From assembly GCA_964552475.1 (NCBI GenBank), contig CAZKFZ010000001.1:128621-192620 (forward strand): DNA of 64,000 bases. The letters run 5' to 3'. Origin of the DNA: an uncultured Candidatus Saccharibacteria bacterium. GTDB lineage: Bacteria > Patescibacteriota > Saccharimonadia > CAILAD01 > BJGX01. The notes under the pieces are model-generated. The model saw only the letters and a list, made by a program, of their open reading frames with translations, ran no database searches and was not told where the DNA came from. This document shows, piece after piece, positions 11,172-61,983 of the stretch (its first letter is position 1; the number at the start of each line of letters is the position of its first letter). The translations under genes and the position numbers were made by a program.

Positions 11172-11555
11172 ATGATCCCCGAACATTTCACGGCTCTAGT
11201 TAAGCAACTAGCAAACTTAGTAAGCTTAGAGCAAGCCGAAATTTTAACAAAAAATATCTCTGAATGTCTAGAGCTTACTCTACCCACCGATAGTTCAAAG
11301 ATTCTATTCGGATATGCTCCGAGCTACCTAAGTGTACAAAAACGTCGATTCTATAATATTAGACGTGCACAACCAAATAGTTATAGACACACAATCTTAC
11401 TTCAAAGACTAATGACGCAGCAAGGTCTTACCGATAATACTGAGGCAGAGAATCGTATTGCTGCATACTTTAAAGCAATAAATATTGTAGTGGGTGATAA
11501 AAAATATCAAACCATATGCTCTATATTGCCATATGAATTAAAGCATCTTGCATAA
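11172..11555 (+). CDS. Hypothetical protein (127 aa)
   Basis: Clean ORF with GGAG-type ribosome-binding site (ACGGAGAAAAA-ATG); no recognisable motif. Confidence 0.4.
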   Translation: MIPEHFTALVKQLANLVSLEQAEILTKNISECLELTLPTDSSKILFGYAPSYLSVQKRRFYNIRRAQPNSYRHTILLQRLMTQQGLTDNTEAENRIAAYFKAINIVVGDKKYQTICSILPYELKHLA

Positions 11556-11578
11556 ATAAGCTTTATACTATTAATGTA

Positions 11579-12430
11579 ATGACAAAACTAAGCGTAGTAC
11601 GTGAAACCAGCTCAGATCAATATGAGAAGATTCTCTTTGAAAGACCAATTAGTGCTTTACAATCTCGTAAAATTGCAATACTCATCGGTGAGCACGCACA
11701 GATAAAGCACATTAATGACATTTATCAAATAATTGTTGCACTTAAGCATCAACCTATAATTATCGCTGAACGCACAGCATCAAACACACTTGTGCCTGTT
11801 GATACATACATGGAGAAGTCTAGGCTAAGATCAAATCCCCTCTATTCTAACGCCGACGAAATAGTATCTAATGTAAACAATTGTAGCTATGCTGTTGTTG
11901 GTATTGATTTTGAAATAAATTCATCTCTTCAATTATTTTTAGAAAAGCTAATAGCTTCTAGGCCAAGCCCAATACTTTTTAATGATGAATCAATGGTTAT
12001 GTCTAGGGTGTCACCAAATATTTTTAAACATCGAGTAGGTGATGCGTTTATATGCAGTATTAACAGCTTAAGTAAGTTTGCTAACAACTTAAAGGTATTA
12101 AATAAAGTGTCTGAAAGCGATGGTGTGCTACAAAAACTACAATTTATGAGCGAAGTATCGTCTTTAATAAATGCCAATATTGTAGTCTTAGGTGATAGGC
12201 AGATACTAGCAACTAGTTATAAACAAAGTAATCAAGGCTTTGTATCGAACTTCAATTTTGAAAAGAAAATAAATCTTAGTGGAGTGGTTACTGCTATACT
12301 TGTAAGTCTTTTAACAGATAGCTCAAGTACACAGGACGATTTTCTTATGAGGGTAGCAACTACCTGCTATCTGTTACGACAAGGTTTTAGAAGGAATGAT
12401 ATAATTGCAGCGCTAAAAAAAATAGCTTAG
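11579..12430 (+). CDS. Hypothetical protein (283 aa)
   Basis: Long ORF with balanced composition; no recognisable motif. Confidence 0.4.
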   Translation: MTKLSVVRETSSDQYEKILFERPISALQSRKIAILIGEHAQIKHINDIYQIIVALKHQPIIIAERTASNTLVPVDTYMEKSRLRSNPLYSNADEIVSNVNNCSYAVVGIDFEINSSLQLFLEKLIASRPSPILFNDESMVMSRVSPNIFKHRVGDAFICSINSLSKFANNLKVLNKVSESDGVLQKLQFMSEVSSLINANIVVLGDRQILATSYKQSNQGFVSNFNFEKKINLSGVVTAILVSLLTDSSSTQDDFLMRVATTCYLLRQGFRRNDIIAALKKIA

Positions 12431-29547: not shown

Positions 29548-30258
29548 ATGTTCAGTACAATACCGGAAAATTTACTACCTTATCTCATAGGATTCCCTGT
29601 GTTTATGTTATTTGGGTTTCGTGGATGGCGAAACTATCAAAGACTTCACAATCCACTTTCTAAGCTCTTTGCATACAGTGGTTTTGCAGCTGGTATTGCT
29701 TTCGGTAGTTGGTCGGTACCATTCTTATTGCCTATAACCGAACCTGTTATGATAGTAGTGTCGATATTTGGTGATTTTTTTCTGTACGCTATGTTTGCTC
29801 TTCAGGCCTATATAGTATATTATCTCGCCCTAAAAAACCGCATACCTGCTGTATTTATAGTTCTGCCATTTTCTGTATTAGCTTTTTTGGGGTGGTTAGC
29901 CAATTGTTACGGCTATATTCACAATGGCGTATCGGTCGAGAATGGAAAATTCTTGTATACACTGCCAGCGTTTTCTGATTTTGCCCAATTAGTACTACTA
30001 ATAAATGTCTTTATAGTAGGAATACTTATGGTTGGTCGCATTGGGCAACAAACCAATGCTCGTGCCAAGGGCGCGCTTATGGGTATTGGAGCCCTATATT
30101 TGCTCACAGGATTTGCAGGTACTCTAAACGTAATTCTATCTGGCGACCCAAATGGATCACCCTTAATAGTCGCGGGCTACGTAGTTGGGTTTGTGTCTTT
30201 TGTGATAATACTTGCAACTATACGTTTAGTGCAAAGGCCTAAGAATAAAAAACATTAA
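29548..30258 (+). CDS. Hypothetical polytopic membrane protein (236 aa)
   Basis: 6-7 hydrophobic helices. An extended -10 (TGcTATAAT at 29530-29538) sits 9 nt before the ATG. Confidence 0.4.
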   Translation: MFSTIPENLLPYLIGFPVFMLFGFRGWRNYQRLHNPLSKLFAYSGFAAGIAFGSWSVPFLLPITEPVMIVVSIFGDFFLYAMFALQAYIVYYLALKNRIPAVFIVLPFSVLAFLGWLANCYGYIHNGVSVENGKFLYTLPAFSDFAQLVLLINVFIVGILMVGRIGQQTNARAKGALMGIGALYLLTGFAGTLNVILSGDPNGSPLIVAGYVVGFVSFVIILATIRLVQRPKNKKH

Positions 30259-38431: not shown

Positions 38432-38878
38432 ATGCCTTGTAACTTTCTAAGTTACGAGGCTTTTTATTTACAAAACATCTTCCTAATAGTATTATCACTT
38501 ATAAGTTTTGTACCTAATACATGTCATGGGGGAGTAGTGCTACATAGAACCATTCAAAAGTGTAGTGGACTTTTACGTTCACAAATAACTCGCCGAGAAA
38601 ATGAGAAGGCGACACGCAAGCTACAGCTTCAAGTTGATGCCAAGAAACTACTAGAAATAAAGGGTGATGCACGAAAGAATGGCTGGTCTCTTTCTCAGGA
38701 GTTAGTGCTATCACAGCTAAGTCTAAGGTACTGCGTGCCTACACCCGAACCGTTGCCAAATATCGTAGGTGATAAATATGGGCAGATAGACGAAAACGAT
38801 CGTTGGGCAAATCTTATACTCCATGAGATTACACAGATACTTAAGAAGTATCGTACCGACCGACCAGTAGGTAGATAG
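38432..38878 (+). CDS. Doubtful ORF (148 aa); the 5' part overlaps the terminator hairpin. A real coding portion, if any, probably starts downstream (e.g. GTG 38537)
   Basis: The ATG at 38432 lies inside the terminator stem. A candidate promoter (TTTACA-17 bp-TATTAT, 38467-38495) follows the terminator. The C-terminal ~100 aa look protein-like, with no internal ATG. Confidence 0.25.
   Translation: MPCNFLSYEAFYLQNIFLIVLSLISFVPNTCHGGVVLHRTIQKCSGLLRSQITRRENEKATRKLQLQVDAKKLLEIKGDARKNGWSLSQELVLSQLSLRYCVPTPEPLPNIVGDKYGQIDENDRWANLILHEITQILKKYRTDRPVGR
38434..38468 (+). terminator. Rho-independent terminator (11-bp stem with one G.U, loop TTCTA, T5 tract)
   Basis: GCCTTGTAACT-ttcta-AGTTACGAGGC followed by TTTTTATTT, directly after the 91-aa ORF stop. 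Confidence 0.7.
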
Positions 38879-40913: not shown

Positions 40914-41765
40914 ATGAATATACAAGAATTTAATTATAATAGCAAGGGTTATCCAGATCTTTTGCGAAATATTTCATCTCCACCCAAGAAATTATTCTAT
41001 CTGGGTAGTATACCCAACCTACCAATGGTGGCCATAGTAGGCACACGCAAGCCGACCGAGTATGGCAAGCAAATAACCTATAAAATTGCCTACGATCTTG
41101 CCAGCGCTGGTATATGCGTCGTTAGTGGCTTAGCCTATGGCATAGATGGAATTGCGCATAGCGCAGCTTTAGATGCTGGCGGTAAAGTGGTAGCGGTACT
41201 AGGTACCCCACTTAACACAATATATCCGGTAGCAAATCGCAACTTAGCTAAGTCTATATTGTCCAAAGGTGGAGCAATTATTAGTGAGTATAGAGTTGGT
41301 ACCAGCACTCAACGATTTAATTTTCCGGCGCGAAATAGAATAATTGCCGGCCTAAGCTTGGCCACAATCGTAACCGAAGCCGATGCGCAAAGTGGTAGTC
41401 TAATTACTGCCAATTTTGCCATTACTAATGATCGAATGGTGATGGCTGTGCCAGGCAACATTACCAGCCCACGTAGCGCCGGCCCCAACAACTTAATAAA
41501 ACTAGGCGCTAGACCGGTAACCGACGCTAGTGATGTACTGGCCGAGCTAGAACTTAAAAGTACAGTTTTGAAAAGTCACAAAATTGCACCGGCTAATAAA
41601 GAAGAGGCTTTGGTCATACAGCTTATAGAAAATGGTCACGTCAACACTCACGCCATGATAGAGAATAGTGAGTTTGACGCCGCCAGGCTAGCACATGTAT
41701 TAAGCTTAATGGAGATAACCGGCAAGATTCGAAACCTTGGTGCAGGCCAATGGGTAGTAAGCTAA
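40914..41765 (+). CDS. dprA: DNA processing protein A (Smf)
   Basis: Rossmann-like DprA core: VAIVGTRKPTEYGKQITYKIAYDLASAGICVVSGLAYGIDGIAHSAALDAGG. Confidence 0.85.
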   Translation: MNIQEFNYNSKGYPDLLRNISSPPKKLFYLGSIPNLPMVAIVGTRKPTEYGKQITYKIAYDLASAGICVVSGLAYGIDGIAHSAALDAGGKVVAVLGTPLNTIYPVANRNLAKSILSKGGAIISEYRVGTSTQRFNFPARNRIIAGLSLATIVTEADAQSGSLITANFAITNDRMVMAVPGNITSPRSAGPNNLIKLGARPVTDASDVLAELELKSTVLKSHKIAPANKEEALVIQLIENGHVNTHAMIENSEFDAARLAHVLSLMEITGKIRNLGAGQWVVS

Positions 41766-41867: not shown

Positions 41868-44183
41868 ATGGCAAAAAAATTACTCATAGTAGAATCACCG
41901 GCCAAGGCTAAAACAATCGAGAAGTATCTGGGCTCAGACTACCAGGTACTTTCTAGCTATGGACACATACGAGATCTGCCCAAGAGCGGTATGAGCATTG
42001 ATATTAAAAACAACTTCGAGCCCACCTACGAAATTCCCGCTGATTCTAAAAAGACAATTTCTGCGCTCAAAAAGGCTGTAAAAAACAAAGAGGTATTTCT
42101 TGCCACCGATGAAGACCGCGAAGGGGAGGCAATTAGTTGGCATTTGTGCGAAGCACTTAAGCTTGATTATAAAACCACTAAACGTATAGTGTTTCACGAG
42201 ATCACCAAAGAGGCTTTAGTTAGCGCTGTAAGTAACCCCCGTACGGTTGATATTAACCTTGTAAATGCCCAGCAGGCTCGCCGGGTGCTTGATAGATTAG
42301 TGGGTTATGAGCTAAGCGAAGTTATATGGAAAAAAATACGGTATGGTCTGAGTGGTGGTCGTGTTCAGTCAGTTGCAGTTCGCCTAATATGCGAACGAGA
42401 GAGCGAGATTGAAGCCTTTAATGCAAATTCTACTTTTAAAGTAAGTGCGGAGTTTAATCTAGGAAAAGATGGTGTGTTACTGGCTGAACTAAAAGATAAG
42501 ATACCTTCCAAAGATGAAGCAAAGCAATTACTTGAATTATTAAAGAGCACAAAATATACAATAACGTCAGTAGAGAAAAAACCCGGTAAAAAATCTCCAT
42601 CGCCACCATTCACTACCTCAACATTACAACAGGCGGCTAGCTCTCAATTAGGCTTTTCAGTACGTCAAACCATGGTGGTTGCTCAAAAGCTTTATGAAGC
42701 CGGTAAAATTACCTATATGCGTACTGACTCACTCAACCTTTCTGATAGTGCTATCAAACAAGCTAGTAGTGTAATAAGATCAAATTTTGGTAATAAGTAC
42801 TTAAAAAATAGACATTTCAAGGCTAAATCGGCTAACGCCCAAGAAGCACATGAGGCTATTCGTCCAACTGATTTTTCTGAAGAGTTAGGTAGTGATGATT
42901 CTGGCCAACAACGCTTATATAAGCTTATTAGAGCACGGGCTTTAGCCTCACAAATGACTGATGCCGAAATCGAAAGATCGGTTGTAACCATTAATTTAAA
43001 CAACTCTGAGTACGTTTTTATTGCTAGGGGTGAGATTGTTGTTTTTGATGGTTTTTTAAAAGTTTATGGCAAGATGATAGAAGATGTTATTCTCCCACCA
43101 CTAAAAGATGGGCAGTCTCTAGATATAAAAAAGGTAACGGCTCGCGAGACCTTCGATAGGCCACCATCTAGGTATACCGAGGCAAGTTTGGTAAAAAAAT
43201 TAGAGACTGAAGGAATAGGTCGCCCAAGTACTTATGCTCCTACTATTTCAACCATACAATCTCGTGGATATGTAGAAAAAGCCAGCCGTGAAGGTGAACC
43301 GCGTAACGTAAATGTAATTACATTAGAAAACAAATCTGTAAACGAAGTTGTTGAACAAGAAAACTTTGGTGTAGAAAAAAACAAATTGTTTCCAACCGAT
43401 ACTGGGAGAGTGGTAAATGATTTTATAGTGAAGTATTTTCCGACTATAGCTGATTATAAGTTCACCGCTAAGGTAGAGGGAGAGTTTGATAAAATTGCCC
43501 AAGGCCATGAAAAATGGAAAACTATGATAGCTAATTTTTATAAACCATTTCATGAACTAATACTTAAAACCGAGGATGTTACACGCCAAGATGCCAACAA
43601 AGGAAGAGAACTAGGTAAAGATCCTAAATCTGGTAAACCGGTAATCGCTAGATTGGGTAAGTATGGGGCGATGATACAAATAGGACAAGCAGAAGACGAA
43701 GATAAGGGCGAGGGCAAACCAAAATTTGCTTCTATGCCAGCCGGTAAAACAATAGAGAGCGTCACTCTTGATGAAGCTTTAGAGATGTTTAAATTGCCAA
43801 GAGATCTAGGTAAGACAAAAGACGGCAAGGATGTTGTTGCGAGTATTGGTAGATTTGGGCCATATGTAAGGTTTGATAATACCTTTGTATCTATTAAAGA
43901 CGAAGATCCATTTACTATTACGCATAAAAAAGCCCTAGAATACATCGCTGCCAAGCAAAAAGCCGATGCCGAAAAAATAATTACTGATTTTAAAGACGAA
44001 GGTATACAGATATTGAATGGTCGCTATGGTCCTTATGTAACAGATGGAGAAACCAACGCTAAAATACCAAAAGACGTTGATCCTAAAACACTATCGGCAA
44101 AGTCAGCTCAAGAAATTATCGCAAATAAACCAAGTGGAAAACGTTCTAAGAAAACAACGTTAAAGAAAAAATCTAATAAATAG
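41868..44183 (+). CDS. topA: DNA topoisomerase I
   Basis: TOPRIM N-terminus (LLIVESPAKAKTIEKYLG...GHIRDL), the catalytic Tyr region, C-terminal Zn-ribbon-less repeats and a Lys-rich tail; 771 aa. The dprA-topA linkage is conserved in many bacteria. Confidence 0.95.
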   Translation: MAKKLLIVESPAKAKTIEKYLGSDYQVLSSYGHIRDLPKSGMSIDIKNNFEPTYEIPADSKKTISALKKAVKNKEVFLATDEDREGEAISWHLCEALKLDYKTTKRIVFHEITKEALVSAVSNPRTVDINLVNAQQARRVLDRLVGYELSEVIWKKIRYGLSGGRVQSVAVRLICERESEIEAFNANSTFKVSAEFNLGKDGVLLAELKDKIPSKDEAKQLLELLKSTKYTITSVEKKPGKKSPSPPFTTSTLQQAASSQLGFSVRQTMVVAQKLYEAGKITYMRTDSLNLSDSAIKQASSVIRSNFGNKYLKNRHFKAKSANAQEAHEAIRPTDFSEELGSDDSGQQRLYKLIRARALASQMTDAEIERSVVTINLNNSEYVFIARGEIVVFDGFLKVYGKMIEDVILPPLKDGQSLDIKKVTARETFDRPPSRYTEASLVKKLETEGIGRPSTYAPTISTIQSRGYVEKASREGEPRNVNVITLENKSVNEVVEQENFGVEKNKLFPTDTGRVVNDFIVKYFPTIADYKFTAKVEGEFDKIAQGHEKWKTMIANFYKPFHELILKTEDVTRQDANKGRELGKDPKSGKPVIARLGKYGAMIQIGQAEDEDKGEGKPKFASMPAGKTIESVTLDEALEMFKLPRDLGKTKDGKDVVASIGRFGPYVRFDNTFVSIKDEDPFTITHKKALEYIAAKQKADAEKIITDFKDEGIQILNGRYGPYVTDGETNAKIPKDVDPKTLSAKSAQEIIANKPSGKRSKKTTLKKKSNK

Positions 44184-44312
44184 CGTTGACCATATAGAAC
44201 TAAAGTGATATAATTGAATTAAGTTATTAGTTTACAGATAGAGATATGTTTTTTATACCTGTAGATAATATGTTAAAACCACTCACTTTTTTAATCAAAG
44301 GAAACAATTTTA

Positions 44313-45380
44313 ATGCAAAATAAGTCGCAAAGTGTAGATAAAAAACAACTCGATTCATTGATTTCGGAGAGTTTAGATCTACTAAAAAAAGATCGCGATC
44401 GAGAAATACTATTACGTAGATATGGTGTGGCTACTGGTAAAACTCAAACTCTAGAACAAATAGGTAGAGACCTTGGTATAACCAGGGAGAGAGTGAGACA
44501 GATAGAAAAAGCCGCACTTACCAAGATACGTGAACAAGCCAAGCACGATCACGAACTTAGTAATATATTGGTTGCTATCACCGACAAAAGGGGTGGAATA
44601 ATTGGTTTTGCGTCACTTGTTAATGAACTTGGTTTAGACGGTAAACTAAGACCACACCTTAGCTTTCTATTAAAACTTAACCCAAATTTTACATTTCTAG
44701 ATAAGAACGATCAGCACGCTGATTTAGTCTTTTTAAGTGATAGCTATAAAGAAGATGGAGTGCGTAAGTTGCACGATCAGATAATTACTGTTGCAAGAGA
44801 AAATGGTAAACCGGTTAAATTTGATAAGCTTGTCGGTAAAATAGAGGGCGAAAATAAACCTGAAGCTCTAGAAGAATTGGCTACCGCTAGCACTCAACTA
44901 GCCAATCTAGATAATGTATGGGGTCTAAGCATTTGGCCAGAAGTAAACCCTAAGAGTATAAGAGATAAAATATATTTAGTACTAAAAAAGGGTGGAAGAC
45001 CAATGCATTTTACTGAAATTTCTACAAAAATAGCAGTAATGCCAGCAAATCCCAAGAAAGTTACAACCCAAGCGGTACATAATGAACTTATTAAAGATAG
45101 TCGCTTTGTACTAATTGGTCGCGGTATCTACGCACTAGGTGAATGGGGTTACCAAAGTGGTACGGTCGCTGATATAATAGAGGAGATCTTGCGCGAAAAC
45201 TCACCGATGAGCAGAGAAGATATTATTACCAAGGTATTAGCGCGAAGACAAGTAAAAACTACAACTATCACTCTTAACCTACAGGAAAAGCCACAATTTG
45301 AACGCACAAGCAAAGGATTTTATCAACTCAAAAAAGGATATACTGCAACCGGAGTTAAGAGTAGTCGCGGCGGACGATAG
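44313..45380 (+). CDS. Sigma-70 region 4 HTH fused to a C-terminal HARE-HTH domain (unusual architecture)
   Basis: N-terminus GKTQTLEQIGRDLGITRERVRQIEKAALTKIRE is sigma region 4.2. The C-terminus KKGGRPMHFTEISTKIA...RFVLIGRGIYALGEWGY matches the HARE-HTH pattern of RpoE-delta type (RF..G.G.Y.L.EW). No sigma regions 2 or 3. Confidence 0.6.
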   Translation: MQNKSQSVDKKQLDSLISESLDLLKKDRDREILLRRYGVATGKTQTLEQIGRDLGITRERVRQIEKAALTKIREQAKHDHELSNILVAITDKRGGIIGFASLVNELGLDGKLRPHLSFLLKLNPNFTFLDKNDQHADLVFLSDSYKEDGVRKLHDQIITVARENGKPVKFDKLVGKIEGENKPEALEELATASTQLANLDNVWGLSIWPEVNPKSIRDKIYLVLKKGGRPMHFTEISTKIAVMPANPKKVTTQAVHNELIKDSRFVLIGRGIYALGEWGYQSGTVADIIEEILRENSPMSREDIITKVLARRQVKTTTITLNLQEKPQFERTSKGFYQLKKGYTATGVKSSRGGR

Positions 45381-45456
45381 GTATTTACTAGTCCATATTA
45401 GACAATTTTGTATATTTTCACATATTAAGAAAACTAAGTTCTTCTTTTAGCACCTC

Positions 45457-48177
45457 ATGAACGACATTATTTCATTAATTTCAACATTTTTTTCAGTAAT
45501 AGGCACCATTCTTTTTCAGTTTTGGGGTTGGACGCTTATTGCCGCTTACTTGGGATTTTTAATCTGGAAAAATAATAGTAAGAAAATAGAATATCTACAA
45601 AATTCTGACTTCAGTCTATTACATATTGTAATACCTAAAGACAATGAAAAAAAAGAATTGTCTGCAGAGCAAATGTTTGCTAGCTTACATGGCATATTAC
45701 AGCCTACAAGTGAATTAGAAAAGGAGAGGCGAATACAAGACCATATAAGCTTCGAGATAGTTGCTCGCGACCAGGTGATACATTTTTATGTCTGGACCCC
45801 TACTAATTTGAAGGATTTTGTAAGTAGTCAAATTTATGCTCAATACCCATCTGTACAAATAAGTGAGATGAAACACGATTATACCAGCCAAGAGGGGCTC
45901 GACCCCAATCATGTATATTCTACAGAAATAACGCTTATGAAGGATGAAATATTTCCAATTCGTACCTTTCAAACTTTTGAAGTAGACCCTTTGGCCGGAC
46001 TCACCACTGTCCTGGCATCACTATCAGATAACGAACAGATGTGGATACAATTCTTAATGGAGCCGGTCGATGACAGTTGGCACAAAAAAAGTCTTAACTA
46101 TATAAATGAAGTTATTAATGGCAAAAAGCCTAGTCGTTTTGAAAACTTAGGAAGCAAAACCGTTGGCTATGCTAAAGCGTTATCTGTTCCACCAAGTGTA
46201 CAGGCTGCAGATGCCAAAAAACCCGATAAAAAAGAACTCACACCCGGCCAAACTACCCTAAACTCCGCTATTGAAACTAAGGCAGAAAAACTTGGTTATG
46301 CAGTAAAAATACGAGCCGTATATGTAGGGGAGAGTGATGCTGCAGCAAAAACCCGTATGCAAGCCTTGGTAGGAGGATTTAAACAGTTTAATACTATTAA
46401 TTTAAATGGTTTTACTAATACCGGACTGTTAGCGGGCGACACAGCCCTAGAACAATACCAATTGAGAGAGTTTGAGGATGCTGGCTATGTTCTAAATATT
46501 GAAGAGATCGCCAGCCTATACCACTTACCACACACCAGTGTAGAGACACCAGGTGTAGCCTACACCAGCACAAAAGTAGGGGAGCCACCTAGTAACCTGC
46601 CAACTATTAACAACACTCCTGCAGAGGATATAAGCTTGTTTGGAGTTACTACTTTTAGGCAAGCCAATATGAAGTTTGGTATAAAACGTGAAGATCGTAA
46701 ACGACACATGTATATTATTGGTAAGTCTGGCAGTGGTAAATCATTTTTACTCAATTTGCTTACACTATCAGATATTTATCACAACGAAGGCTTTGCGGTA
46801 GTTGATCCGCACGGTGACTACGCTCAAGATATGTTGCGGTATATACCAGAACATCGGCTCGAAGACGTAGTATACTTTAATCCTGCTGACGGAGAGTTTC
46901 CAGTGGCGTTCAACCCTATGGAGGTTTATGATGTGAATCGCCGTAGCAACGTCGCTTCTGAAATTGTGGGGGTACTCAAAAAAATGTTCGGTGATAGTTG
47001 GGGACCACGGCTTGAACATATTTTACGCTACACACTACTGGCACTTCTTGAGACACCTAATACCACACTGCTAGGTATCACCCGTATGCTCACCGACAAA
47101 AAATATCGTAATGAAATCATCGGCAACGTAACCGACCCTGTAGTGAAGGCGTTCTGGGTGAATGAGTTTGCCAGCTGGAATGATAAGTTTGCATCAGAAG
47201 CTGTAGCTCCGGTTCTAAATAAAGTTGGGGCGTTTACAGCCAACCCACTTATACGAAATGTAATTGGACAAGAAAAGAGTACCTTTAGTATTCGTAAAAT
47301 GATGGATGAAGGTAAAATTTTAATAGTAGACCTAAGTCGCGGTAAGATTGGTGAAGACAATGCTAGTATACTTGGTAGTCTGCTAATTACAAAAATTCAG
47401 CTTGATGCTATGAGTCGTGCAGATATTCCAAATATTGACGATCGTAGGCCATTTTACTTATACGTAGATGAGTTTCAAAACTTCGCTACCGAGAGTTTTG
47501 CAGTAATTCTTTCTGAGGCACGTAAATATGGTCTTTATCTTACCGTTGCAAACCAATACATAGCTCAGATGCCCGACGAGGTCAAAGATGCCGTTTTTGG
47601 TAATGTTGGTAGTATGATTACTTTTAGGGTGGGTGCAGACGACGCCACTAGCCTGAGTCGTTATTTTGAACCAGTGTTTGAACCTTTAGATTTGGTTAAT
47701 CTAGACAAGCAAGATATATATGTCAGTATGAGTATCGATGGACAAACCAGTCTACCTTTCTCGGCTAAAACTCTTTTTGTGCCCAAAACACCAGCCGATC
47801 ACTCTAGTAAAATTCTAGAACTTAGTAGGAATAAATACTCTAGTGGACGAGCTAGCGTAGAAGAATCAATTGCCGCCTGGAGTGGTATGGAAGAGGGAAA
47901 ATCAGCGAGTGATAATAACGAAAATACAAAAACCGAACAAAAGATTTCTGGAACTGCTGCTAGCCTACCATCTCTAAAAGTGAGTGGTGCAGAGCCCAAA
48001 AAGTATAGCGAGATGGTAAAAGGTAAAAGCCAAGCAATTAGTAACCGTAGAAACGAACCTTACAAGCCTGATCAAAGCAAAGGCAACCCGACGAACAATA
48101 ACAAAAAAACTGGCAATAACTCAAACAACCACCAAGGTGGTCACAATAAACCTTTCTACCCCAAAAAGAAAAACTAG
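45457..48177 (+). CDS. Membrane-anchored VirD4/TraD/TraG-like type IV coupling protein ATPase with extra ~390-aa N-terminal domain and low-complexity C-terminal tail
   Basis: Two N-terminal TM helices. Walker A IIGKSGSGKSF, then VVDPHGDYAQDML...FNPADGEFPVAFNP (compare F TraD: IVDPNGDML...ILNPYD). Walker B FYLYVDEFQNF, then ARKYGLYLTVANQ and TFRVGADDA, typical of TraG/TraD C-terminal region. N/K/G-rich tail. Confidence 0.7.
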   Translation: MNDIISLISTFFSVIGTILFQFWGWTLIAAYLGFLIWKNNSKKIEYLQNSDFSLLHIVIPKDNEKKELSAEQMFASLHGILQPTSELEKERRIQDHISFEIVARDQVIHFYVWTPTNLKDFVSSQIYAQYPSVQISEMKHDYTSQEGLDPNHVYSTEITLMKDEIFPIRTFQTFEVDPLAGLTTVLASLSDNEQMWIQFLMEPVDDSWHKKSLNYINEVINGKKPSRFENLGSKTVGYAKALSVPPSVQAADAKKPDKKELTPGQTTLNSAIETKAEKLGYAVKIRAVYVGESDAAAKTRMQALVGGFKQFNTINLNGFTNTGLLAGDTALEQYQLREFEDAGYVLNIEEIASLYHLPHTSVETPGVAYTSTKVGEPPSNLPTINNTPAEDISLFGVTTFRQANMKFGIKREDRKRHMYIIGKSGSGKSFLLNLLTLSDIYHNEGFAVVDPHGDYAQDMLRYIPEHRLEDVVYFNPADGEFPVAFNPMEVYDVNRRSNVASEIVGVLKKMFGDSWGPRLEHILRYTLLALLETPNTTLLGITRMLTDKKYRNEIIGNVTDPVVKAFWVNEFASWNDKFASEAVAPVLNKVGAFTANPLIRNVIGQEKSTFSIRKMMDEGKILIVDLSRGKIGEDNASILGSLLITKIQLDAMSRADIPNIDDRRPFYLYVDEFQNFATESFAVILSEARKYGLYLTVANQYIAQMPDEVKDAVFGNVGSMITFRVGADDATSLSRYFEPVFEPLDLVNLDKQDIYVSMSIDGQTSLPFSAKTLFVPKTPADHSSKILELSRNKYSSGRASVEESIAAWSGMEEGKSASDNNENTKTEQKISGTAASLPSLKVSGAEPKKYSEMVKGKSQAISNRRNEPYKPDQSKGNPTNNNKKTGNNSNNHQGGHNKPFYPKKKN

Positions 48178-49030
48178 TAGTAGTTTTACTATAAAAAAAA
48201 TAAGTAAGCTATATAGGCTAAAAGTAGGGGAGTAAAAACAATTATAGCTCTGATCCCCCATAAAACAGAATAATCGTTCAGACAACCGGCGATGATTCGT
48301 GAAGGGTATTGAAGTATATGATTTAAAACACAAAATCTATTTTACGTAATCAATCCATCTCCCCTATATTATTGCTATTTGATTAAAACTTCATGTGATC
48401 ATTTTATATGTTACTTTATATATACCTTTAATATAATTTAGTATGATTGTCATTATGAATCTCGTTTCAAATAAATATTTCTCTTAAATGTTTCCCATAC
48501 TATTACTAAAGAACAACTAAGAATAGATTGTCAGTAAAAAGAATGCTGCTATTACTTAAATAAAGTGGATAAAGAGAAGTTTCATAGAATACATAGGTAT
48601 AATTAATCAAGTCTAGTGCATAATATACTTAGTCGCACAATGTATATTTTGCGTCGTATTAAGGTATTATACTTAAAATACGTATTTATATTTTAAACAT
48701 ATTTTTTTTATGATTTTTTCTCTATTTGCTCCCCTCTCTAGTATAAGCTTAGATAATCAATTCTATTGTTAACACCATGTATTTAACTAAATACATATAC
48801 ATACAAAAACCGAACGTAATATAAAAGTGAATTGAGGACGTATTTAGCTAGATCTAAATAACTAAGTACTATATATTATAAAAAATGCCAAAGCCTAAAT
48901 GACTAAAGTATCTATACTTAAGACTTTTATCCGTAATTATATTAGGTTAAAAGTTATCCACAGTCGAATTATAGGGTCGCAAAATAGCTGTAGTATATTT
49001 TACAATAATACCCTCACCGTCTCGCTTCCC

Positions 49031-61269: not shown

Positions 61270-61983
61270 CTATTCAAATACATTGAGTTGACGAGTTAAT
61301 GGTATACCAATATATAATATTTGTTTCTTGTGTGTACTGCGTTGCCAAACCGATACTTCGGTAGTTTTTAATACCTCGAGAGCATAGTTACATACAATCC
61401 CTGTAAGATCTAACTTTTTGTTAACTACCTGGTTGCGATTGAGGCTAACAATTGCAAAAATCAGTTTATTGCTCAACCATACACTTCTGGTAGAATATAT
61501 CTCCAAAACACCTAGCCTATCTCTTTTACTGAATCTTGTTTTCATTGTAGAACTATTTGTACCCGATACCAGTAGAACAGATAGTGCGTTCGTAAACACC
61601 TTAGGATCTACGTTTACTAGCGAATTTTTATATGTTTTGTGCGACAAAAATACTAGATTTGAAAATAAACTGCTAATCTGATTAAGCAGATCTTCTATAT
61701 GAACATTCTTATTTGCCTCTATTTTTAAATCGCAGAGTAGGCGTAGATTTTCAAGTAAATTAACGGCATTGTGGTTTTTTTTGTTAGCCACTTTAATACG
61801 CTTAACTATATCTGGTAGCTCAGATTTTTTGGAATTTAATAGATCTTCTAAATAGCCACTTATGGTTTGTTCTGTACTACTAACTGTTTTTGAGGTAGCA
61901 AAAAGTGTAGAAGACAAACCGCCATGAGCTATCCACTCTTCATTAATATCGTTTAACAAACCATATCCCTCCGGTACTTCCAT
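61270..61983 (-). CDS. Hypothetical protein (237 aa) upstream of the receiver gene
   Basis: No kinase H/N/G boxes recognised; function unknown. Confidence 0.35.
   Translation of the reverse strand: MEVPEGYGLLNDINEEWIAHGGLSSTLFATSKTVSSTEQTISGYLEDLLNSKKSELPDIVKRIKVANKKNHNAVNLLENLRLLCDLKIEANKNVHIEDLLNQISSLFSNLVFLSHKTYKNSLVNVDPKVFTNALSVLLVSGTNSSTMKTRFSKRDRLGVLEIYSTRSVWLSNKLIFAIVSLNRNQVVNKKLDLTGIVCNYALEVLKTTEVSVWQRSTHKKQILYIGIPLTRQLNVFE

Follow-up and report, generated by a model that had tools for sequence, protein, structure and literature searches.

Type IV coupling proteins (T4CPs; TrwB, VirD4, TraD and TrsK), which carry an N-terminal membrane anchor, typically end in acidic tails. A CONJScan-based study (Quinonero-Coronel et al., Microb Genom 2025) classed the Patescibacteria homologues as T4CPs and counted 5,713 VirD4-like members in 2,918 of 3,035 Patescibacteria genomes. 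Only 148 of the 5,713 lie near virB4, and VirB4 was found in fewer genomes (2,417) than the T4CP homologues. Orphan coupling-protein homologues in Patescibacteria are already in the literature, and the same study noted that the homologue of Southlakia is not essential and that exaptation 'cannot be ruled out'. Southlakia's type IV secretion system (T4SS) is without a coupling protein or relaxase that could be recognised (Wang et al., Cell 2023). Here we analyzed a 64,000-nucleotide stretch (the window) of an uncultured Candidatus Saccharibacteria bacterium (contig CAZKFZ010000001.1, positions 128,621 to 192,620), in which two adjacent genes at 44313-48177 encode a 355-aa protein that joins sigma region 4 to winged helices (sigma4-WH) and a 906-aa protein that joins a membrane anchor, a DUF8128 domain and a coupling-protein-type ATPase.

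We give a probability of about 0.4 to the reading that sigma4-WH and the DUF8128-ATPase protein constitute a membrane translocase module with a DNA-binding partner. Both open reading frames (ORFs) were found exactly as an earlier reading of the DNA without database searches (the sequence-only reading) had described them; the genes are separated by 76 nt. Their features are as follows.

44313..45380, + strand: sigma4-WH gene, 355 aa, basic product (isoelectric point, pI, 9.6)
44340..44552, + strand: sigma region 4 (4.1-4.2), group-1/2 type, aa ~10-80 (Pfam, PDB profile, SigA alignment)
44553..45332, + strand: four winged-helix-like units, aa 81-141, 147-205, 216-275 and 285-339 (AlphaFold2, Foldseek, Pfam, DPAM)
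44964-45146, + strand: HARE-HTH, the third winged helix, aa 218-278 (Pfam HARE-HTH, 8.5e-11)
45457..48177, + strand: 906-aa fusion gene (anchor, DUF8128, coupling-protein-type ATPase, basic tail)
45457..45567, + strand: N-terminal hydrophobic membrane anchor, aa 1-37 (Kyte-Doolittle scan; conserved FxFWGW motif)
45586..46611, + strand: DUF8128 domain, aa 44-385, about 345 aa (precomputed PF26449, AlphaFold2 and Foldseek, stand-alone homologues)
46630..47841, + strand: TrwB/VirD4-type (T4CP) ATPase domain, aa 392-795 (Pfam, NCBIfam, PDB searches, hhalign)
47854..48174, + strand: basic low-complexity C-terminal tail, aa 800-906, pI 9.7

The five motifs from which the sequence-only reading had recognised a VirD4/TraD-type ATPase are all present: GKSGSGKS (Walker A, aa 422-429), VVDPHGD (448-454), YLYVDEF (Walker B, 667-673), TVANQ (696-700) and TFRVGADDA (722-730). 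The Pfam check that it had proposed was run, and TraG-D_C, Sigma70_r4 and HARE-HTH all matched. On the 906-aa protein, Pfam TrwB_AAD_bind reached 4.4e-9 (aa 411-725; 36.2 bits, above the 20.5-bit cut-off), DUF87/HerA 4.1e-9 and TraG-D_C 1.4e-4, and the NCBIfam TraD and CD1115 VirD4-like models matched the ATPase, all far under their cut-offs. Searches of all PDB sequences by phmmer and with a family profile of 26 sequences placed TrwB first (5e-6) and DotL next; neither VirB4 nor FtsK appeared in them. When the ATPase family was compared with individual proteins by hhalign, R388 TrwB aligned over 268 columns with a probability of 96% (E 1.7e-9), covering the nucleotide-binding domain as well as the stretch between Walker A and Walker B that corresponds to the all-alpha insertion, and the T4CP TrsK of pSK41 aligned over 292 columns. 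By contrast, the VirB4 proteins TrwK and TrsE aligned at the P-loop only. Pfam AAA_10, which would mark a VirB4-type ATPase, scored 17.3 bits (cut-off 27.5 bits), and Pfam FtsK_SpoIIIE scored 13.9 bits (E 0.037; cut-off 24 bits). The long alignments with TrwB and TrsK, as opposed to the P-loop matches of VirB4, indicate that the motor is of the coupling-protein type. By these sequence comparisons the ATPase is TrwB/VirD4-like, not FtsK, HerA or VirB4, and the original assignment held. The best-scoring hidden Markov model of any library was PADLOC mad8 of the MADS defence system (5e-18, 63.7 bits, aa 415-760, nt 46699-47736).

Between anchor and motor lies the extra domain that the sequence-only reading had singled out. 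It proved to be real and strongly conserved, and corresponds to DUF8128, a family assigned via the precomputed Pfam annotations (PF26449) of homologues; our literature search found no paper mentioning it. In a set of 26 homologues of 55-87% identity, mean column identity over the whole 906-aa protein was 57%, Walker A and B were invariant, and DUF8128 was conserved on a par with the motor domain. The whole protein is therefore under strong constraint. No equivalent of DUF8128 fits into R388 TrwB, because TrwB has 506 aa in total and its motor aligns from residue ~116. The anchor was described before as having two transmembrane (TM) segments; the Kyte-Doolittle scan upheld a hydrophobic N-terminal anchor and resolved only one stretch (aa 1-36), which could be a hairpin or a single helix.

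Structure prediction of the insert, another of the checks proposed earlier, gave an AlphaFold2 model of aa 44-405 with a predicted local distance difference test score (pLDDT) of 74 and a predicted template modelling score (pTM) of 0.74. In a Foldseek search of the PDB with this model, the 12 best matches were without exception R388 TrwK/VirB4 chains (E 9e-5 to 8e-4, probability 0.95-1.0, TM-score about 0.4, root-mean-square deviation about 9 A). These were the only significant matches; the rows ranked under the E 0.001 level were unrelated ferredoxin-like proteins and oxidases, and no P-loop ATPase other than TrwK/VirB4 was among the 50 matches listed. Because of this exclusivity, we infer that the matched segment lies in the N-terminal part specific to VirB4, which the modelled DUF8128 would resemble at the level of fold only: hhalign found no sequence-level similarity between DUF8128 and either TrwK or pSK41 TrsD.

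Taking predicted fold and sequence together, the 906-aa protein is best described as a hybrid with a putative VirB4-like front end and a VirD4-like motor. Its layout, in which a RecA-like ATPase comes after an N-terminal domain close to the membrane, is also that of VirB4 (TrwK). It differs from VirB4 in that its ATPase sequence is not VirB4-like and in that the module is not in a VirB3/B6/B8 cluster. The T4CP features that it shares are the anchor, the nucleotide-binding domain, whose alignment runs on through the region of the predicted all-alpha insertion, and the TraG-D_C signal. Unlike T4CPs, it has DUF8128 inserted between anchor and motor, and it ends in a basic rather than an acidic tail. 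The low-complexity tail noticed earlier (aa ~800-906) is thus present. In other lineages, in which the motor is encoded by two genes (described below), the ATPases carry at their C-terminus a CxxC...CxxC zinc ribbon (Pfam zf_Tbcl_2; L168 9924-11477 and L169 10294-11979), which sits where the window protein has its basic tail.

We then examined the 355-aa protein encoded upstream, for which sigma region 4 plus HARE-HTH without regions 2 and 3 had been proposed. Pfam profiles bore this out: Sigma70_r4 matched aa 27-74 (7.7e-14), and no Pfam or NCBIfam model of sigma region 2 or 3 matched (no Sigma70_r2). All sigma matches were confined to aa 4-86, mapping to region 4, and the family profile retrieved from the PDB only region 4 of RpoS, SigA and RpoD (2e-15, aa 8-86). 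Regions 4.1-4.2 are retained almost residue for residue relative to SigA (about 40-45% identity), and the -35 recognition helix, TRERVRQIE in the sigma4-WH family and TRERIRQIE in SigA, is invariant across the family. Although sigma4-WH shares region 4.1-4.2 including this helix with sigma-70 factors, it has no region 1, 2 or 3, and it is not a sigma factor because region 2 is missing. An ordinary or extracytoplasmic function (ECF) sigma factor was accordingly rejected: the protein has a group-1-type region 4 only, followed by winged helices, in agreement with the earlier view.

The AlphaFold2 model of sigma4-WH (pLDDT 86.7) showed region 4 followed by the four winged-helix-like units, and Foldseek matched it to the C-terminal 4xWH fragment of SelB, UFL1/DDRGK1, RPC62, Dcc1 and sigma4/beta-flap chimeras. 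A published DPAM parse divides the Southlakia orthologue into one tri-helical and three winged domains, consistent with the model. The third winged helix, HARE-HTH, is shared with the RNA polymerase delta subunit (RpoE); NCBIfam TIGR04567 (RNA polymerase delta) gave 38 bits, under its 42-bit cut-off, and DPAM matched the Southlakia orthologue to e7f75L1, also RNA polymerase delta. However, sigma4-WH bears three winged helices more and is basic, and the absence of an acidic tail sets it apart from a delta subunit, which it is not. Literature searches for the sigma4/HARE architecture gave nothing relevant.

Both proteins have thousands of homologues, and the named ones are labelled Saccharibacteria or Patescibacteria, apart from one labelled Dormibacteraeota. 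We scanned one genome per GTDB species with a DUF8128 alignment; at least 593 stretches, out of 600 listed, were confirmed, and the best 80, nearly all of them titled Saccharibacteria or Saccharimonadia lineages, were kept. Together with six further loci these made up a set of 86, in which homologues were located by tblastn. The gene for sigma4-WH lay directly 5' of the fused ATPase gene in 85 of the 86 loci; at the sole exception, the sequence ends 434 nt upstream of the ATPase gene. At six loci (L029, L052, L055, L061, L070 and L072), 0.5-1 kb separates the sigma4-WH and ATPase matches, which points to either the insertion of a gene or an extended N-terminus.

When DUF8128 alone served as the query of an exhaustive HMMER search, 2,262 cluster representatives of two architectures were returned: DUF8128 fused to the ATPase (800-1,100 aa), and a stand-alone protein of TM segment plus DUF8128 (~415-550 aa), one of which is named Portnoybacteria. 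A metagenome scan with the stand-alone form yielded 80 loci, which we scored over those testable for each gene. A separate ATPase gene followed directly 3' of the DUF8128 gene in 59 of 60 loci, a sigma4-WH homologue lay 5' of it in 51 of 58, and the motor was truly encoded by two genes in all 73 scorable loci (73/73). Identity to the window proteins was 27-33% for DUF8128, 51-59% for the ATPase (over aa 406-800) and 31-40% for sigma4-WH (over aa 28-340). Co-occurrence of the pair, which the sequence-only reading had asked to be checked, thus extends across great evolutionary distance.

At loci with called gene boundaries, the gap from sigma4-WH to the next gene (gene 2 or DUF8128) ranged from -32 to +76 nt, and that from DUF8128 to the ATPase from 2 to 6 nt. 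Such short or negative gaps suggest co-translation. The split ATPases have no hydrophobic segment, whereas the stand-alone DUF8128 proteins have one; DUF8128 must therefore supply the membrane anchor, and a complex is implied. The split arrangement would parallel pSK41, in which trsD directly precedes the VirB4 gene trsE; TrsD is remotely homologous to the N-terminal part of VirB4 (Quinonero-Coronel et al., Microb Genom 2025). We rejected the idea that the stand-alone DUF8128 proteins are the virB4-adjacent 'TrsD' homologues of the literature: a T4CP-type ATPase follows them, sigma4-WH precedes them, and hhalign to pSK41 TrsD was empty. On the Portnoybacteria contig, the DUF8128 and ATPase genes flank an ORF of 75 aa (L168 9694-9921) that contains two hydrophobic segments and might be a VirB3-like small membrane partner. 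One metagenome contig carries a second copy of a coupling-protein-type ATPase (L143 19915-21078), 44% identical to the window domain and about 8 kb 3' of the module.

The flanks of the module differ between the two sets. In Saccharimonadia, topA is usually found farther upstream and the division and cell wall (dcw) cluster downstream; dprA is inverted or absent at some loci, and some have a penicillin-binding protein (PBP) gene inserted between topA and the pair. In the split set, neither topA nor ftsQ was found within 10 kb of the module at any locus (0/80). Instead, secD-secF lies upstream on the same strand in 33 of 44 testable split loci (within L087-L169; for example, L167 5123-7711, L168 5680-7684 and L169 5090-7670), and no secDF was found near the module in the 86 Saccharimonadia loci. 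Linkage of sigma4-WH, DUF8128 and ATPase was kept while the flanks differed, and these three therefore make up the invariant unit. The dprA-topA and dcw neighbourhoods are lineage-specific synteny. The neighbourhood check proposed by the sequence-only reading hence found the pair conserved and the dprA-topA flank not. Judged from sequence, the pair is a core chromosomal operon found widely in Patescibacteria; no relaxase, integrase or mating-pair formation (MPF) gene was present in seven distinct annotated loci. In contrast to T4CPs, which are associated with relaxase and MPF genes, the Patescibacteria protein occupies a fixed housekeeping position and is encoded by two genes in many lineages.

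The window itself is ordinary core chromosome of low GC content (~38%) from Saccharimonadia (Patescibacteria, candidate phyla radiation), with no GC or skew anomaly seen. Its genes run in the order dprA, topA, the sigma4-WH/ATPase pair, a gap of about 850 nt and a convergent dcw cluster (ftsQ, murG, ftsW, mraY, a PBP, mraW and mraZ); recO is also present. Other features of the immediate upstream region are as follows.

40914-41765: dprA, 5' of the pair
41868-44183: topA, 5' of the pair
44186..44214, + strand: promoter-like site TTGACC-17 nt-TATAAT with a TG extension, between the topA stop and the sigma4-WH gene (consensus scan, 11/12)

Promoter-like sites in the region were not above those in shuffled sequence, and the site at 44186..44214 is a pattern match only. 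The window further contains ftsEX, CTP synthase, xseA, sortase, mreB, glycosyltransferases, a Glu/Gln-type tRNA synthetase, ribonucleotide reductase, a two-component system, scpAB, der and pth. We compared 52 further ORFs of the window with Pfam, and each was either assigned to a housekeeping family or had no match. As stated earlier from the sequence, no relaxase, VirB4 or other T4SS gene was among them, nor was an integrase. The only RNA gene found was one tRNA-Leu. The ATPase gene and ftsQ converge on an AT-rich stretch of about 850 nt (48178-49030), which contains no credible ORF and no Rfam match. Four ORFs elsewhere in the window (38432-38878, 11172-12430, 29548-30258 and 61270-61983; 127-283 aa) look conserved, and Pfam gave nothing for them at E<=1e-3 or 1e-5.

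Genetic data are available for the corresponding pair of Southlakia epibionticum ML1, SEML1_0294 and SEML1_0293, with topA two genes upstream (Table S1 of Wang et al., Cell 2023); we assigned these orthologues by domain coordinates, lengths and synteny. In that study SEML1_0294 is annotated as RpoS, with Sigma70_r4 at 27-72 and HARE-HTH at 225-283, and SEML1_0293 has TrwB_AAD_bind at 402-719. Transposon sequencing (Tn-seq) scored SEML1_0294 as essential at each of the three time points; 1-2 insertions were counted, versus 24 in the input DNA. SEML1_0293 was called non-essential; its normalised reads fell from 5,817 to 1,372 between T0 and T2 (about four-fold), while its neighbours stayed flat. 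Both genes were flagged 'core family' and 'Patescibacteria enriched'. The genuine RpoD (SEML1_0063) is essential, as is a canonical FtsK (SEML1_0096), whose domains are 4TM, alpha, motor and gamma. The same holds for SEML1_0142 (3,060 nt), another T4CP-like ATPase, whose gene comes after two small hypothetical ones. Since sigma4-WH is essential and the ATPase is not, the partner cannot be solely an accessory of the motor.

In the translocase module that we favour, DUF8128 would anchor and scaffold the ATPase ring at the membrane, like the N-terminal domain of VirB4, and the hexameric ring would act as a translocase of nucleic acid or nucleoprotein. A substrate of this kind is indicated by the basic tail or zinc ribbon of the motor and by the basic sigma4-WH partner. 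Sigma4-WH would specify the substrate or the loading site of the ring, by analogy with a coupling protein and its DNA-binding accessory factor, or with FtsK and its gamma domain. The motor may act alone, or it may feed the T4SS of Patescibacteria, whose own locus is without a coupling protein. Sigma4-WH would have a separate, essential role as well; because its region 4 is near-canonical, a role at -35-like DNA or at the beta-flap of RNA polymerase is plausible. Alternatively, it may be essential by restraining an otherwise harmful motor.

Several observations weigh against the translocase module. In Southlakia the partner is essential and the motor is not, so that their functions would be only partly shared. 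The T4SS genes of that organism are essential while this ATPase is dispensable, and a second coupling-protein-like ATPase, SEML1_0142, is essential. Seven of the 58 split loci have no sigma4-WH gene within 10 kb, and at these seven DUF8128 directly follows a SecF-like ORF (judged by N-terminal sequence). The VirB4-like assignment of DUF8128 stands at the fold level only, with a TM-score of about 0.4 for a model of pLDDT 74 and without sequence support. Finally, coupling proteins can also move proteins, so the substrate need not be DNA.

A possible alternative is that the coupling between the two genes is regulatory only. Sigma4-WH would then be an essential factor associated with RNA polymerase or promoters, co-expressed with the ATPase operon or controlling it, and the ATPase would act alone, for example as a detached T4SS coupling protein, with no physical link. 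The differing essentiality of SEML1_0294 and SEML1_0293 fits this idea, as do the SigA-like region 4 with its preserved recognition helix, the delta-subunit fold of HARE-HTH, the split loci that are devoid of the partner and the promoter-like site upstream of its gene. On the other hand, the genes stay adjacent where every flanking gene has changed and the motor has been split or fused, and stop and start codons overlap or nearly overlap in several lineages, as is seen more typically with interacting partners than with a general factor that has this operon among many targets. The sequence-only reading had itself suggested that the pair, with dprA and topA, could be a minimal DNA-translocation or DNA-sensing module; such a module for DNA uptake or sensing, competence-linked or stand-alone, would act with DprA and TopA. 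Both genes are indeed found upstream, in the window as well as at many Saccharimonadia loci, the ATPase gave weak NCBIfam matches to the archaeal DNA-import ATPases CedD and CedB, and its non-essentiality would suit such a module, comEC being likewise dispensable. However, the association is variable and limited to Saccharimonadia, secDF adjoins the split module in place of topA, and the CedD and CedB scores are far under the cut-offs. The adjacency of dprA and topA is moreover a common bacterial synteny, of which smf-topA of Bacillus subtilis is presumably an example. The part of the claim that placed dprA and topA next to the pair stood, the connection to competence that had been drawn from it found no support, and we consider such a module unlikely.

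Even less probable is a chromosome-clearing translocase of the FtsK/SpoIIIE kind acting at division, with the winged-helix protein in the role of the FtsK gamma domain. The ATPase shares a superfamily with FtsK, and the pair is convergent with ftsQ-murG-ftsW-mraY in the window and at most Saccharimonadia loci, but the FtsK_SpoIIIE score is under its cut-off and the 80 split loci gave no ftsQ match. We rejected the ATPase as a substitute for FtsK because Southlakia has a canonical, essential FtsK. The least credible of the alternatives is a remnant of an integrative conjugative element (ICE) or an anti-phage defence module, in which a HerA/mad8-like ATPase would be combined with an MzaA-like sigma protein. 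The T4CP-type family of the ATPase, its matches to mad8 and several HerA models, and a match of MzaA to the sigma4 part could be read in this way. Yet no integrase, relaxase or MPF gene, nor any further mad or mza gene, was found among the 52 window ORFs scanned or in the seven annotated loci, the base composition is free of anomalies, the position is fixed across the class (86 loci), both families are 'core' in Patescibacteria, and the MzaA match is limited to region 4. Neither a patchy, strain-variable distribution nor flanking att sites were seen. A defence system was rejected: while mad8 matches the ATPase domain, the mad8, HerA and MzaA matches are single-domain and their partner genes are absent from the window. 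That the locus is not the remnant of a conjugative element, as the sequence-only reading had suggested, agrees with its housekeeping neighbours and its synteny across the whole class.

A more far-reaching proposal, which we regard as doubtful, is that the translocase module belongs to an undescribed membrane machine specific to Patescibacteria. In it, a VirB4/VirD4-hybrid motor would receive either chromosomal DNA or a transcription complex from an essential protein that binds -35-like DNA or RNA polymerase. Such a machine could be used to export DNA to the host or siblings or to exchange it with them, or could tether transcription to the membrane, independently of classical relaxase-driven conjugation.

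According to our literature search, the module, the predicted VirB4-like fold of DUF8128, the fused and split variants and the constant sigma4-winged-helix partner appear to be undescribed. An orphan coupling protein thus gains an anatomy, with a putative VirB4-like N-terminal domain and a coupling-protein motor, fused or split, and a constant partner. The motor would be assembled from parts of both T4SS ATPase families, which bears on the divergence of VirB4 and VirD4. The sigma4/winged-helix partner is essential in the one genetically tractable species, and these hypotheses are testable in Southlakia. Patescibacteria make up a large share of bacterial diversity, and in their tiny genomes a gene conserved in this way is unlikely to be idle.

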